This document shows, piece after piece, positions 18,148 to 57,897 of a DNA stretch of 64,000 nt. The DNA is from a virus. The stretch covers positions 19,068 to 83,067 of IMG/VR virus record IMGVR_UViG_3300031788_000005, one strand, 5' to 3'. The notes beneath the pieces were generated by a model, which saw only the letters and a program-made list of their open reading frames with translations, searched no databases and was not told the origin of the DNA. A program made the position numbers and the translations under genes. Positions within the stretch are counted from its first letter, which is position 1. Each line of letters opens with the position of its first letter.

Positions 18148-19490
18148 TTAGTTCTGCTCCTAGTGTGAAATTCCACTGAAGATTCAGGAACTTCGTTAAC
18201 AACACCACTAAAAGAAATTAGAAAAGACTTATTGTGTAATAGACAGCACCATAAATATCCCTCAGTATTTTTTGGGATATGAATGTCTCCAACCGTCACG
18301 TCTTTTTTGAGAAAAACCCTCATTCTAGAATCCCATTTTCCAAATCCTCTAAGATAGAGGTTGAGATTTTAGCCGCGTTAGTTTCACCACTTTCCACGTA
18401 ATTTCCTACAAATTCTTTGATTTTAAGAAGCCCTAATGTTTGAATTTCGGAGTCTTTGCCAGCGGTTCTTAGTTCGGTTAAGACATCCATAAACAGATTT
18501 TCAATATCGTCAGTACTCATATTATTCTTCTATCTTGCCACTATTCTCGGGAAATGTCAAGTAAAATTCCTTCTTAAGACTTTCGTACTTAGCAATAAAA
18601 TCAGTAAATTCCTTAATAACTTTTTTCCCTGCTTTTTTATCGCGAAGAATTATCAAGACCTTAGACAGTAGTAATGAGTTGTGGTTCAGGGACATAAGTT
18701 GATTCGACTTCTATAAAAAATTCTTGTGGTTTTTGTTGCAAATGAGAAAAGATATGTTCGTTGGGTATTACCCTTTGAGACTGGTAAATGCACCCGAATT
18801 TATTTCCATCTTTATGGGTTAACATAGTTTCAAAATGAAAGCCGTCTAGCTGTCTGGTTGTAAATGTGAAATCTGCTATGTCCATATTAATCTCCATTAA
18901 TCTTTGCAGCCAGTGGTTTCGGCATAAATCCCTCGCATCGGCCCTCTGGTGAAATTTTACAGATACTTGGAGTCATACATTTTAGTCTTATATTGAATTT
19001 ACAACCGACCGCCTGACAGTCTATATCTAGCCAATCGCGACTTAGCCACGGATGATGTTCCTTTCCGTGACCGACTCTAGGATTAGTCCGGCAGTTTTCA
19101 TTCGTCGTGTCCGTCATTCTCCAACAATTCTTCGTATTCGCACGTCTCAATCATATCCTGCAATAACTCTATAACATCCTTTTTATTAGAATCAAAATTA
19201 TCTTGTAAGTCGCCTGTGGAAAACAGGTGTGATATATTTTCGAGTTTTTCAATGATTTTTTCTAAGTTGTGGATAATTTTGTCGGGTTTCATAATTATTA
19301 ATTAATTCTGTTAAAATCTCGGCTGTATAACGTGGGATAAATTTTATTCATATTCAAATCATTAATAAATAATAGTTTATATTGGTTTTCTGATAAAGTC
19401 AAGTATTTTATTTTTAGTTAATGATTTAAATTTGTTCCAGTCGTTTTCCCACACAAAAACCTATAGATGTGAAATTAAAATACGAATGGA

Positions 19491-40440: not shown

Positions 40441-40486
40441 ACAAGAATGTTAACGTAATTATTAAATAATGTCAAGTATAAACAAA

Positions 40487-49981: not shown

Positions 49982-50057
49982 TGGTAGGGTTAGCTGGTTT
50001 TGCGCCAATGCGTTTAAACTTTGAGAAAGTTTCGTGCTACTATTACACCATAACCCC
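49982..50057 (-). tRNA. tRNA-Glu(CTC)
   Basis: AAACT-TTCTCAA-AGTTT; bulged T stem. Confidence 0.7.
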
Positions 50058-51149: not shown

Positions 51150-51156
51150 ACCAATT

Positions 51157-51450
51157 TTACTTGCTGACCTCATTTTTGACTATACACTCATTTGCTGGGG
51201 AATTTAGCAGCGTGGCGTCCAAGCCTTTTATGTTCCCTCTATCTTATCACTAAGATGCAAAATTTACCCTAACGATTGAATAATTGCTACACGGCCAAGC
51301 TCATAATCGCATTATGAAGTATTAACGACAAATCTCCTTCTCTATGTGCGTTTTTAAAATGGACGAAAACGCTGACTACTTACGATATACCCTTTGGGGC
51401 CGTCGTCCCATGGGCTAGGGAATTAATTCCCGCAATGACAGACCAAGTAA
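51157..51450 (-). ncRNA. approx. 294-nt unknown structured RNA
   Basis: TTACTTG..CTG/CAG-CAAGTAA closing stem; several hairpins; no ORF. Confidence 0.5.
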
Positions 51451-51494
51451 ATTAAATTTTTGTCTTCACTACATTTCAAGTGTAATAACAATAT

Positions 51495-54632: not shown

Positions 54633-54710
54633 TGGTAGTTCGTGCAGGCTGATGTCCTGCGCCTCTTCGCCTATAAAGCAAACGCTCTTAATCGTGTAAG
54701 CTAACGAACC
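54633..54710 (-). tRNA. tRNA-Ile(TAT)
   Basis: TTTGC-TTTATAG-GCGAA. Confidence 0.8.
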
Positions 54711-55286: not shown

Positions 55287-55371
55287 TGGTGGTAGTTGAG
55301 GAAATTGCATCCCCGTAGGCCGAAGCCAACGCGTTTACAGCGCGTCACAATTGCTACTCTGTCAAACTACC
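55287..55371 (-). tRNA. tRNA-Tyr(GTA)
   Basis: ACGCG-CTGTAAA-CGCGT; GGC-TTCG-GCC variable arm. Confidence 0.9.
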
Positions 55372-55751
55372 AATTTAAATTTTTTATAAAAATCTGACAA
55401 TGTAATAGAAGTATTTGCTTTAATTTCATTTATTGGAATAATATATATCTCATCCAAGTCGGTTAAAACAAACAATATATCAACTTTAGTTTTGTCAATA
55501 TTTTTACACCAATATTTTTTTTTGTTGCCACCCATAGTTCTCATATTAACAACGTAATATCCTTTTTTATTTTTGTGTGCGGTAGTTTTAACCTGTACCT
55601 TTTGTAAATTTACGTTCTCAACTATTAAATCATATTCTTGACTATCTGTTAATGGAATAGATACCGTATATCCTTTAGCACAGTAATGGGCAATTGCTTT
55701 TCCAAGGCCATGGTCGCCTTGTTTTTTCGAGTTTTTACAATTTTCAAACAT
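55362..55751 (-). CDS. PD-(D/E)XK endonuclease (PDDEXK_5-like)
   Basis: QGD.G...AI..Y...GY.VSIPL.DSQEYDLI, KVQVKT. Confidence 0.85.
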   Translation of the reverse strand: MFENCKNSKKQGDHGLGKAIAHYCAKGYTVSIPLTDSQEYDLIVENVNLQKVQVKTTAHKNKKGYYVVNMRTMGGNKKKYWCKNIDKTKVDILFVLTDLDEIYIIPINEIKANTSITLSDFYKKFKLVV

Positions 55752-55854
55752 ACACCTGTATAATACACAGATTATGACGTTTTATCTAAAAAATTTGGTG
55801 GAAGTATCGTTCCCTTTACGCCTGATTCTAACAGGAGGATTTTTCATCCTACGA

Positions 55855-55936
55855 TGGTGGACACATGAGGGTATCGCGCCCTTAATTTTAAACTTGCGTG
55901 CAAAGCAAGTACAGCACCTTTGTTGTCACATGGCCC
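55855..55936 (-). tRNA. tRNA-Ala(TGC)
   Basis: CTTGC-TTTGCAC-GCAAG; G3:U70; A73. Confidence 0.8.
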
Positions 55937-55992
55937 AAAATATTTCATCTGCTAATCAGACCGTTTTTCGGTTCAATCTGCAAACGTTAAAA

Positions 55993-56065
55993 TGGCAAGA
56001 CGTGAACCATCGCAGGCTCGCTAAGTGGTTTGGAATCACTTGTGCTACTCTTACACCAACGTCCT
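55993..56065 (-). tRNA. tRNA-Trp(CCA)
   Basis: AGTG-A-TTCCAAA-C-CACT; G73. Confidence 0.85.
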
Positions 56066-56310
56066 ATAAATTAAATTCAGCTAAGTTGCTAGGGACGAGA
56101 AGTAGTCCCCGAATACTCTCATGTCGAAGTGACTTTTTGAACTTGGGCGTAGAGCTAACGCCTCCAGAACTCGTTATTTACTTAACTGAAATTTTTAGCT
56201 ATTACGGGCAAACCCGATTCAGGTACCAACCCTGACATTTTTATAAGGGGAGTTTTCTCCCCCGACTGGATTCTTTTTAGTTTTTATGATTACTCATGAC
56301 TGAGTAAATT

Positions 56311-56385
56311 TGGAGTGCTCGATGGGTAACGCTCCCACTTAAACAATCTTGGCAAGATTGCGCCTCACTTGTCGGCCCCGAACAC
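56311..56385 (-). tRNA. tRNA-Gly(GCC)
   Basis: CAATC-TTGCCAA-GATTG; U73. Confidence 0.85.
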
Positions 56386-56740
56386 AAAAATTGGGGAGTC
56401 TAATTTCTCTGCTATCACAGTCGTAAATCACTGTATAGAATTGCAGTTTGACCCCGAATTACGAAATTAAAGGAGGCGAGTAAACTCAAACACTCCTGAA
56501 AAAATTAAGAAGGTTGGGGCGAGCTAAACTCAAACCCCAATCCTTCATCTTAGTGCCTATTTTGTCCCGTATTAAGGGCATATTCAGCTACTATTCGTCT
56601 GGCAGCGAGTATTGTCCTCAAAGCCAGCAGTGTGTTAACGCTGTCTCGCGGTCATCGTCCTCCTCAGAAGCTCTATTAGCTACTTTGGGCTGATGCCACT
56701 CAGCGGGATTTTTCTAAGTTTAATCTCAACTTCTAAAGTC

Positions 56741-56769
56741 AATCTAACATATTCATCCAAACTTGTCAA
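56741..56769 (-). promoter_or_regulatory. sigma70-like promoter internal to the array leader
   Basis: TTGACA-17-TAGATT. Confidence 0.65.
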
Positions 56770-56812
56770 CTACTTTCTTCGCCCCGCAACCAGTCTATTT
56801 TACTAGACAAAC

Positions 56813-56877
56813 AAAAAACCCGAAAAACTTTCTTTTTTCGGGCGACCCTACCATCTTATCTTTAATCCCAGTCGCCC
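56813..56877 (-). terminator. attenuator: overlapping antiterminator and intrinsic terminator
   Basis: GGGCGACT/GGTCGCCC shares CCC with CCCGAAAAA/TTTTTCGGG-TTTTTT. Confidence 0.7.
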
Positions 56878-56991
56878 TTACATCTGTCTATCCCCCATGG
56901 CCCATGTATAATTAGTGTGTTGTATTACGGGTGAATTACCTTTAATGGGATATTCACTACGCAAACTAAATTGTTCAGACACTAATTTCAT
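56878..56991 (-). CDS. putative 37-aa leader peptide MKLVSEQFSLRSEYPIKGNSPVIQHTNYTWAMGDRQM
   Basis: Translated by hand; stop codon abuts the antiterminator; lies directly after three tandem promoters. Confidence 0.65.
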   Translation of the reverse strand: MKLVSEQFSLRSEYPIKGNSPVIQHTNYTWAMGDRQM

Positions 56992-57002
56992 CTTTCTAAT
57001 CT

Positions 57003-57205
57003 ATTGTACATTAAAAGAATGTTTTTGTGAAGTTATTTTTAAAACTATTTTTACCGCTTCACCAAACCATCTCTTATCTTTTTCTATCATAGAGCAGATT
57101 TATCATTTTGTCAAATCTTTTTTTTAACTATTTTCAAACCGTCAATTTGACACTATTTCGTCTCTTAACTTACTTAACTATAAAATATACCTCAAAAAAA
57201 GTCAA
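57003..57205 (-). promoter_or_regulatory. three tandem sigma70-like promoters heading the tRNA array
   Basis: TTGACT-17-TATAGT (57205-57177), TTGACA-17-TATGAT (57114-57086), TTCACA-17-TACAAT (57031-57003). Confidence 0.7.
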
Positions 57206-57228
57206 GAGATTTTTAAAACTTTCTTTAT

Positions 57229-57897
57229 TTAAATTTTATTCAATAATATTAATCCATCATCATATATTTCAAGATAATGGCATTCAGCCTCGGTAAAGCA
57301 ACCCGTATTGATATATGGGTTGCCTTCTTCCAAGAAAGCCATGTGGGTATGACTACACACAATATAATCATAACCCTTTGATTTAGAATAGGTTTCGGCA
57401 TTTTTACGGATTTTGTCGCAGCATTGAATGAAACCCTTTGACTGACGTTTTAAAGCACGAGCCAAAGCTTGTTTTTTAGGACTTAAACACTGAATCCAGT
57501 GATAAATAGCCGAAGCAATTTCGGTTGTTATTGGAAATTTAGAAATAAAGGTATCAAATTTATGACCGTGTGTTATATGAAATCTGCTGCCCGAAACTTC
57601 AAAATCAAAATCATTTTTAAATTTAAATCCTAATAATTCAGATATCATTTTAGCCACTTCCCCGTCGTGATTGCCAGCGATATAGATAATATGAGTGTTT
57701 TTACTCATTTTACGGAGTAGTGATAGGATTTCCCAGTCTTTCTTTTTTAGACGCTTTGTATTATTAACATCAATTAAATCACCGTTTATAATGAGCGTTT
57801 CCGTCTTAATTGTCTTAAGAAGATGGATAATTTTGTCGCGCTGACAGACTTCCGAGCCGATATGGAAATCGCTTACAATGGTATATTTTGTGGGCAT
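57229..57897 (-). CDS. LpxH-like (UDP-2,3-diacylglucosamine diphosphatase-like) metallophosphoesterase
   Basis: SDFHIGS, NGDLID, GNHD, HGHKFD, HTH, YINTG. Confidence 0.75.
   Translation of the reverse strand: MPTKYTIVSDFHIGSEVCQRDKIIHLLKTIKTETLIINGDLIDVNNTKRLKKKDWEILSLLRKMSKNTHIIYIAGNHDGEVAKMISELLGFKFKNDFDFEVSGSRFHITHGHKFDTFISKFPITTEIASAIYHWIQCLSPKKQALARALKRQSKGFIQCCDKIRKNAETYSKSKGYDYIVCSHTHMAFLEEGNPYINTGCFTEAECHYLEIYDDGLILLNKI

Follow-up and report, generated by a model that had tools for sequence, protein, structure and literature searches.

A short leader cassette heads the transfer RNA (tRNA) array of a phage recorded in IMG/VR as IMGVR_UViG_3300031788_000005, and it is best read as a ribosome-mediated transcription attenuator whose leader is stocked with approximately one codon per amino acid, a reading to which we assign a probability of roughly two in three. 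The stretch analysed, referred to here as the window, comprises 64,000 nucleotides (nt) of this 83-kb record (positions 19,068 to 83,067). All features of the cassette lie on the minus strand, as does nearly every gene of the phage, and are numbered by their position in the window. Phage tRNA arrays are increasingly viewed as counter-measures to host tRNA depletion and codon mismatch, and we know of essentially nothing on how their expression is controlled. An attenuator had been proposed in the initial annotation of the window, and the proposal is now supported by comparison and folding, in the form of a conserved cassette, a leader that evolves as coding sequence, compensating changes in its composition and a matching of leaders to arrays. 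The elements of the cassette are listed below, with the leader open reading frame (ORF) among them.

57003..57031, minus strand: proximal leader promoter P3, TTCACA-17-TACAAT, which feeds the leader ORF
56991-56878, minus strand: leader ORF of 37 codons and TAA (56880-56878), using 28 distinct codons for 19 amino-acid types, Cys being the absent one
56840..56877, minus strand: hairpin 1, the putative antiterminator, in which GGGCGACT (56877-56870) pairs with GGTCGCCC (56847-56840) around a 22-nt loop (-13.8 kcal/mol)
56840..56842, minus strand: CCC common to hairpin 1 and the terminator, present in four of four DNA homologues
56813..56842, minus strand: intrinsic terminator, with CCCGAAAAA (56842-56834), loop AGAAAG, TTTTTCGGG (56827-56819) and T6 (56818-56813)
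56741..56769, minus strand: promoter of the array itself, TTGACA-17-TAGATT, its -10 box preceded by TG, approximately 45 nt after the U tract

In the proposed mechanism, transcripts from the leader promoter or promoters would carry the 37-codon ORF. A ribosome that reaches the last codons or the stop would cover the GGG of the hairpin 1 5' arm. The CCC, no longer sequestered, would then pair to close the full 9-bp stem of the terminator, halting RNA polymerase at U6. With a ribosome held earlier, for example by scarcity of a charged tRNA, or one that never starts, hairpin 1 would form first and keep the CCC. What then remains of the terminator stem would be weak, a single G-C pair with five A-U pairs (-0.9 kcal/mol), and transcription would run across the array promoter into the tRNA genes. 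The output would be extra tRNA transcription above a basal level, subject to negative feedback as tRNA levels recover. Any codon that is decoded slowly thus probably lets extra transcription into the tRNA genes and, because the array covers 20 amino acids and the leaders sample 19-20, the device would act as a general sensor of decoding health. Translation in vivo, the kinetics of the switch, the direction and size of its effect, and its trigger (starvation or host anticodon nucleases) are aspects that we infer.

The comparison draws on four DNA homologues of the cassette, found via the neighbouring phosphoesterase gene, namely the window itself, L002, L028 and L027 (L002 is the same contig as L003 and L025, and the blastn match of L026 to the window is identical to that of L027). 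A profile search of 1.84 billion proteins added five more leader peptides (P0024, P0025, P0026, P0027 and P0031) and also returned P0022 and P0023, which are upstream-extended versions of the L002 and L027 peptides. The leader-peptide family accordingly has nine members of 32-39 amino acids (aa), the window's and those of eight relatives; the hairpin and terminator were checked in the four DNA homologues. The closest relatives are JGI metagenome contigs, and DNA of the phage itself is present in peat metagenome runs.

The leader reading frame and its amino-acid content

The 37 codons, 19 amino acids and 28 different codons first annotated at this site were confirmed on recounting. Among the DNA homologues, the ratio of non-synonymous to synonymous change (dN/dS) of the leader ORF is 0.1-0.4, and the proportion of synonymous differences (pS) exceeds that of non-synonymous differences (pN) in every pair, for example 0.73 over 0.22 between the window and L002, and 0.50 over 0.10 between L002 and L028. 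Changes are in excess at third positions, the four indels that separate these ORFs are all whole codons (multiples of 3), and the frame is kept open across all nine family members. By these signs the leader ORF evolves as a coding sequence, and it is from this evolution that its translation is deduced. Against Pfam and PHROG the leader peptides gave nothing at E <= 10 but two weak PHROG matches, both from L027 (E = 0.03 and 0.26). AlphaFold returned no confident fold for the leader peptide (pLDDT 59) and no secondary structure, which counts as weak support only.

This phage mostly expresses its genes as leaderless messenger RNAs (mRNAs). At 39 of the 44 promoters that precede ORFs of at least 60 aa, the ATG stands 6-9 nt past the -10 box, 23 of them at exactly 6 nt. 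Sites of the form TTGAC[AT]-N16-18-TAnnnT with an ATG within 40 nt number 56 on the minus strand and one on the plus strand, and minus-strand examples of leaderless genes occur at window positions 40475, 32201, 30492 and 27645. The leader ATG is located 11 nt past the -10 box in the window, and 10-12 nt past it in all four homologues, so that translation must start behind a leader of 3-5 nt that has no Shine-Dalgarno sequence.

What sets the leader apart is its composition, as it has no clustered codons of one cognate amino acid and instead about one codon of nearly every amino acid. The nine peptides contain 19, 19, 20, 19, 20, 19, 20, 20 and 20 amino-acid types. When 37-residue windows of the phage's own proteins are taken as background, at least 19 types occur in 2.7% and all 20 in 0.3%; the diversity to which the initial annotation had drawn attention is real, and for a single leader is only mildly unusual. 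More telling is the way in which it is kept. Every one of the nine peptides has a single His, placed in three different alignment columns across the family, and Cys and Asp are each found in three columns. In P0031, on our reading of the alignment, the residues that the consensus has as His, Cys, Asp, Glu and Arg have all changed, and each of the five is regained elsewhere.

As the consensus already has all 20 types, close relatives are uninformative and it is the divergent members that inform. Permuting residues within alignment columns gave a summed count of 167.2±2.05 types against the observed 176 (P = 1e-5), and redrawing only the non-consensus residues from the phage composition gave 167.7±2.09 (P = 6.3e-5). 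The individual contributions come from P0031 (P = 0.004), P0027 (0.01-0.02) and L027 (0.05). A Fisher combination over the nine sequences is weaker (P = 0.05-0.07), since four rows carry no information (P = 1); for this reason we relied on the sum statistic. The tests, being post hoc and taking lineages to be independent, are to be read as strong hints rather than exact probabilities that the all-20 make-up has been selected through compensating changes and not merely inherited.

Competing hairpins and the predicted effect of a ribosome

Strong sense-strand intrinsic terminators are rare in this phage, with approximately six in 83 kb. The one that closes the cassette has a 9-bp stem, a 6-nt loop and a U6 tract, and a computed energy of -9.9 kcal/mol; without the CCC/GGG pairs, only -0.7 to -2.4 kcal/mol is left across the four homologues. 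The 5' arm of hairpin 1 begins directly after the TAA in the window, and every element of the geometry described initially (stop, hairpin, shared CCC, 9-bp terminator, U6) is where it was said to be. The distance from stop codon to 5' arm is 0 nt in the window, 3 nt in L002 and L028, and -4 nt in L027, where the stop falls inside the arm; the spacing therefore stays within -4 to +3 nt though the C-termini of the peptides differ. In the four sequences, 97% of alignment cells are paired in hairpin 1, with one compensatory change of C-G to U-A, and 100% in the terminator, also with one compensatory change. The loops of both vary freely, and conservation is higher in the hairpin 1 arms than in the ORF. 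The fold of the whole leader has a z-score of -1.34, which is not significant. A search of 55300-57300 against Rfam at E <= 10 yielded no T-box, only a tRNA and a chance small RNA match.

All four DNA homologues keep the whole set, from the ORF through hairpin 1 with its shared CCC and the terminator to the promoter downstream. A terminator retained in homologous arrays that have neither the ORF nor its rival hairpin would have spoken against an attenuator; such a case was looked for in these four homologues and not found.

The antiterminator and terminator are predicted to be mutually exclusive, with an overlap of only 3 nt that the initial annotation had correctly flagged as a caveat. In the free RNA, the CCC pairs into hairpin 1 with a probability of 0.73-0.88, and hairpin 1 with a crippled terminator is favoured by 1.5-1.8 kcal/mol, in all four homologues. 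A ribosome footprint was then masked at each codon in turn and the probability of the complete terminator computed. In the window, L002 and L028 this probability is 0.02-0.03 with no ribosome and 0.01-0.14 for A-site positions from codon 2 to ~34, the exception among these early positions being codon 28 of the window (0.30). With the ribosome at the last one to three codons or at the stop, it increases to 0.76-0.89 (0.76 for the window at the stop). In these three sequences, folding of both conformers, which had been suggested as a check, thus reproduces the proposed logic. The window's family has no trp-type upstream protector or pause hairpin, and the switch would consequently have two states, the untranslated RNA being one that reads through.

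Similar leader cassettes before other phage tRNA arrays

Blastn against Phage GenBank gave 0 matches, and exact DNA patterns taken from the ORF and the array block found a match in the contig of L002 alone. The peptide profile, run on five more distant phage records, revealed no copy there, and in this genome none beyond the leader itself, and contigs with the phosphoesterase relatives L029-L032 and L055 have different genes downstream and no synteny. The layout itself is more widespread. A scan of IMG/VR with the conserved terminator ends, CCCGAA-N5-12-TTCGGGTTTTTTGTT, gave 76 matches, of which most lie on the same strand as a tRNA array and just before it. At 53 of the 76, an ATG ORF of 20-50 codons ends 5-70 nt before the terminator and a tRNA follows within 130 nt, and the geometry that was to be sought upstream of other arrays is thus found at these loci as well as in the four DNA homologues. 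The terminator consensus of this class is CCCGAA...TTCGGG-U6-GUU, and often a copy of its 3' arm is contained within the last codons of the ORF, generating a full-arm antiterminator. The leader peptides of the class are unrelated to the window's and make up 16 families.

What the class leaders have in common is a correspondence with the tRNAs behind them. Over 23 non-redundant loci, the leaders lack just 1 of the 199 amino-acid types (Met excluded) served by the tRNAs behind them, compared with 39±5 when the leaders are dealt to other arrays (never <=1 in 20,000 trials) and 45±5 for random peptides. With one locus taken per family (16 families), 1 of 139 types is missing, versus 32±4 with swapped leaders. 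The number of types in the leader follows the number in the array (Spearman 0.83, p = 2e-5), such that small arrays have leaders with 11-13 types and near-complete arrays have leaders with 19-20. The correspondence extends to codons, since a cognate leader codon is present for 207 of 227 anticodons versus 194±4 after synonymous redrawing (P = 0.001). When ribosome masks were applied to 32 modules (28 class leaders and the four of the window's family), the median probability of the terminator was 0.82 for free RNA, 0.93 with the ribosome at the stop and 0.08 with it at codon 10, and this modelled pattern is that of a classic three-state attenuator.

The window's family differs from the class in several respects. 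Class leaders often duplicate the 3' arm as an antiterminator, whereas in the window only the CCC is common to both hairpins; free RNA is predicted to be ‘on’ in the window, whereas many class members show the three-state trp-type pattern; and a clearly separate promoter and a leader of 340 nt precede the window array, whereas in most class members the first tRNA is found 12-120 nt past the terminator. The window cassette is the pan-amino-acid end of this continuum, placed before a 20-amino-acid array. Whether the continuum reflects a general rule is a question on which we are evenly divided. Under such a rule, phages with tRNA arrays would carry ‘decoding test’ leaders that list the amino acids, and largely the codons, of the tRNAs behind them, and complete sets would create a pan-amino-acid probe that detects the loss of any tRNA and raises replacement synthesis homeostatically.

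The class also includes variants of composition and context. Thr makes up 10 of the 35 residues in the leader of L058, and among L088, L072 and L062 there are leaders rich in Asn and Thr; these biased leaders precede small sub-arrays. In L096, L099 and L111, the same terminator is situated directly after a tRNA inside an array, without an ORF. A conserved box, TTCTTTGACAT[AG]TTGG, is located between the terminator and the first tRNA, 10-60 nt past the terminator, at L059, L063, L073, L081, L122 and many other loci. The box stands just 15-25 nt ahead of the tRNA, too close to serve as the sigma70 -35 box of that tRNA.

The array, alternative readings and known attenuators

The remaining features around the cassette are two more distal promoters and the beginning of the array.

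57177..57205, minus strand: promoter-like P1, distal, TTGACT-17-TATAGT; fits the phage's own promoter motif, window-specific with no counterpart in L027
57086..57114, minus strand: promoter-like P2, TTGACA-17-TATGAT; no ATG at +1, kept in L002 and L028 and not in L027
56392..56734, minus strand: non-coding 5' part of the array transcript, ~340 nt, separating the first tRNA-like gene from the array promoter
55986..56066, minus strand: tRNA-Trp(CCA), Rfam tRNA 31.7 bits, also detected by ARAGORN at a relaxed threshold; the first confidently detected tRNA of the array

Three tandem promoters had been annotated before the leader and all are present in the window, but alone among them the proximal P3 is kept in all four homologues, reading TTGACA-17-TATTAT or TACTAT in L002, L028 and L027. 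Gene callers lengthened P0022, P0025 and P0026 upstream by approximately 20-27 codons, and the conserved extension is translated promoter and not protein, with TTGACA read as LT and TGTATTAT as CII; the leader promoter is hence conserved in those relatives too. The array promoter is likewise kept in L002, L028 and L027, as TTGACA-17-TAnnnT with the same 17-nt spacing, which bears out a second caveat of the initial annotation, that a promoter follows the terminator. In four peat RNA libraries, contigs of depth 2-9 span 56901-57151 and 56377-56813 and leave 56814-56900 and everything above 57151 uncovered; at this depth the missing cover says nothing about termination.

With default settings, ARAGORN detects 11 tRNAs in the array; at an 80% threshold, and with two matches found by Rfam only, there are 32 candidates for all 20 amino-acid types. 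The full set of 20 described initially is therefore obtained at relaxed thresholds and not by default. The array runs to ~41100 (41.1 kb), several candidates have unusual elbows, and 19 of its 20 amino-acid types are covered by the window leader, Cys being uncovered. The tRNA-Trp(CCA) has a 6-nt T-loop, UGCGAU, and no GG in its D-loop. It is missed by default ARAGORN, as are Ile(UAU) and Glu(CUC), at sites 54636-54710 and 49985-50057 (minus strand), and several array tRNAs are 84-91 nt long. Immediately 5' of tRNA-Trp is a 125-nt block (56068-56193, minus strand) that is 82% identical in L002, where the flanks are unalignable; a candidate tRNA-Leu(TAA) at 56233-56149 overlaps it (ARAGORN, 70% threshold). 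The non-coding stretch 56392-56734 matches no Rfam family, shows 85% identity over 240 nt in L026 and L027, and is covered by contigs of three RNA libraries. Inside the array, a raiA-like RNA at 51155-51452 (minus strand) matches Rfam RF03072 over the full model length with 56.7 bits and E = 1.2e-11, a score below the gathering cut-off of 101.3. A giant ornate RNA of the GOLLD/ROOL type was considered for 56740-55790 and dropped, since this region has no Rfam match and contains tRNA-like genes.

Several observations weigh against the attenuator. Its whole support is comparative or thermodynamic, and the RNA-library contigs can give neither transcript ends nor strand, nor can they exclude carry-over of DNA. 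Covariation in the helices is not significant with four sequences (92/500 and 121/500 shuffles for hairpin 1 and the terminator). With an overlap of 3 nt and an energy gap of 1.5-1.8 kcal/mol, branch migration could still let the terminator form, and the lack of a trp-type protector hairpin leaves the timing of ribosome and polymerase unexplained. L027 is untidy, with a terminator probability of 0.50 in the free RNA, 0.6-0.9 with the ribosome at many codons and 0.92 at the stop. No Shine-Dalgarno sequence was seen at the leader ORF, and the spacing of its ATG departs from the phage's leaderless norm. The window leader is without Cys although a tRNA-Cys candidate exists, and it has no cognate codon for 9 of the 28 anticodons of the window array. 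Finally, because the array's own conserved promoter follows the terminator, the attenuator can only add transcription and not gate it; the array does not depend on read-through alone, unlike what is expected of leader-peptide attenuators.

The identity of 63-74% among leader peptides of close relatives would also fit a peptide with its own job. On such an account the ORF is an independent small-protein gene whose 37-aa product acts in trans, as leader peptides such as peTrpL are known to do (PMC7298713), with hairpin 1 and the terminator as a stabilising and insulating 3' end and synteny with the array devoid of regulatory meaning. Purifying selection, the conserved motifs FSLRSE, KG.SP, HTNY.W and GDR, and the separate promoters of ORF and array, the former with its own terminator, all agree with this. 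A folded or binding peptide, however, would have no reason to keep each amino acid by shifting residues, and this one belongs to no known family and has no predicted fold. The account also leaves unexplained why the spacing from stop to arm is held while the C-termini change, and why 16 unrelated leader families mirror their tRNA sets, and we consider it unlikely. A further account is that of a small, non-coding RNA (~180 nt), or of a terminator that insulates constitutively, the frame and its composition being incidental. The 3-5 nt leader without a Shine-Dalgarno sequence would suit this, as would hairpin arms that are more conserved than the ORF, but the third-position excess, the surplus of pS over pN, the four in-frame indels and the frame held open in nine members do not. 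Moreover, RNA predicted not to terminate when free (P = 0.02) would make a poor constitutive terminator. This explanation appears very improbable.

It is also conceivable that the attenuator is real and its output different, in that read-through over 56769-56741 occludes or interferes with the array promoter, or sets the 5' end or processing of the 340-nt leader RNA. The position of that promoter, conserved and only ~45 nt past the U tract, would permit this, and a conserved non-coding stretch follows it with contigs of three RNA libraries over it. In most class members, however, the short distance from terminator to first tRNA leaves no room for such a leader, and the matching of leaders to tRNAs argues that tRNA supply is the regulated quantity; we regard this variant as at least as unlikely as a peptide acting in trans. 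An attenuator that boosts tRNA transcription is the reading that we favour over these.

Read in this way, the cassette resembles the enterobacterial attenuators (trpL, hisL, leuL and pheL, and the multivalent thr and ilvGMEDA) in its short ORF, terminator and competing antiterminator, and in its logic, where a full read leads to termination and a stall to read-through. It differs in that the enterobacterial leaders have runs of a single amino acid, whereas here there is about one codon each of 19-20 amino acids; in that they regulate biosynthetic enzymes, whereas here the targets would be phage tRNAs in an array with its own promoter; and in that they possess a 1:2 protector/pause hairpin, which the window's family is without, its hairpins overlapping by only 3 nt. 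T-box riboswitches likewise sense tRNA status and choose between terminator and antiterminator; unlike the window device, which would use translation of a leader and has no T-box match in Rfam, they bind uncharged tRNA directly without translation. For the whiB7 (wblC) attenuator of Actinobacteria, we know of no selection for an all-amino-acid leader. There, too, an upstream ORF and a terminator answer general translation stress (PMC10274678), and the gene regulated is a transcription factor, whereas here it would be phage tRNA genes. The leaderless polycysteine short ORFs of mycobacteria (bioRxiv 10.1101/834739) are similar in that an ORF near the 5' end controls downstream expression through ribosome stalling and in that leaderless mRNAs are common there, as in this phage. 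They sense Cys alone and act on operonic protein genes, and the window leader has its ATG 3-5 nt from the predicted start and not at +1 as they do.

Full-text literature searches found no description of attenuation control of phage tRNA genes. From all of these known systems the cassette differs in its putative phage tRNA target, in a leader that is matched to the tRNA set and in this case complete for it, and in that it would work as a booster beside a constitutive promoter. If correct, the reading would extend leader-peptide attenuation, a textbook mechanism of amino-acid operons, to tRNA genes, with a sensor that answers to all 20 amino acids together and is maintained by selection acting on composition, not on sequence. 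It would provide a direct and testable link from decoding stress to phage tRNA output and a compact natural part that reports the general health of translation, and the sequence of a leader would predict which tRNAs a phage ‘cares about’.

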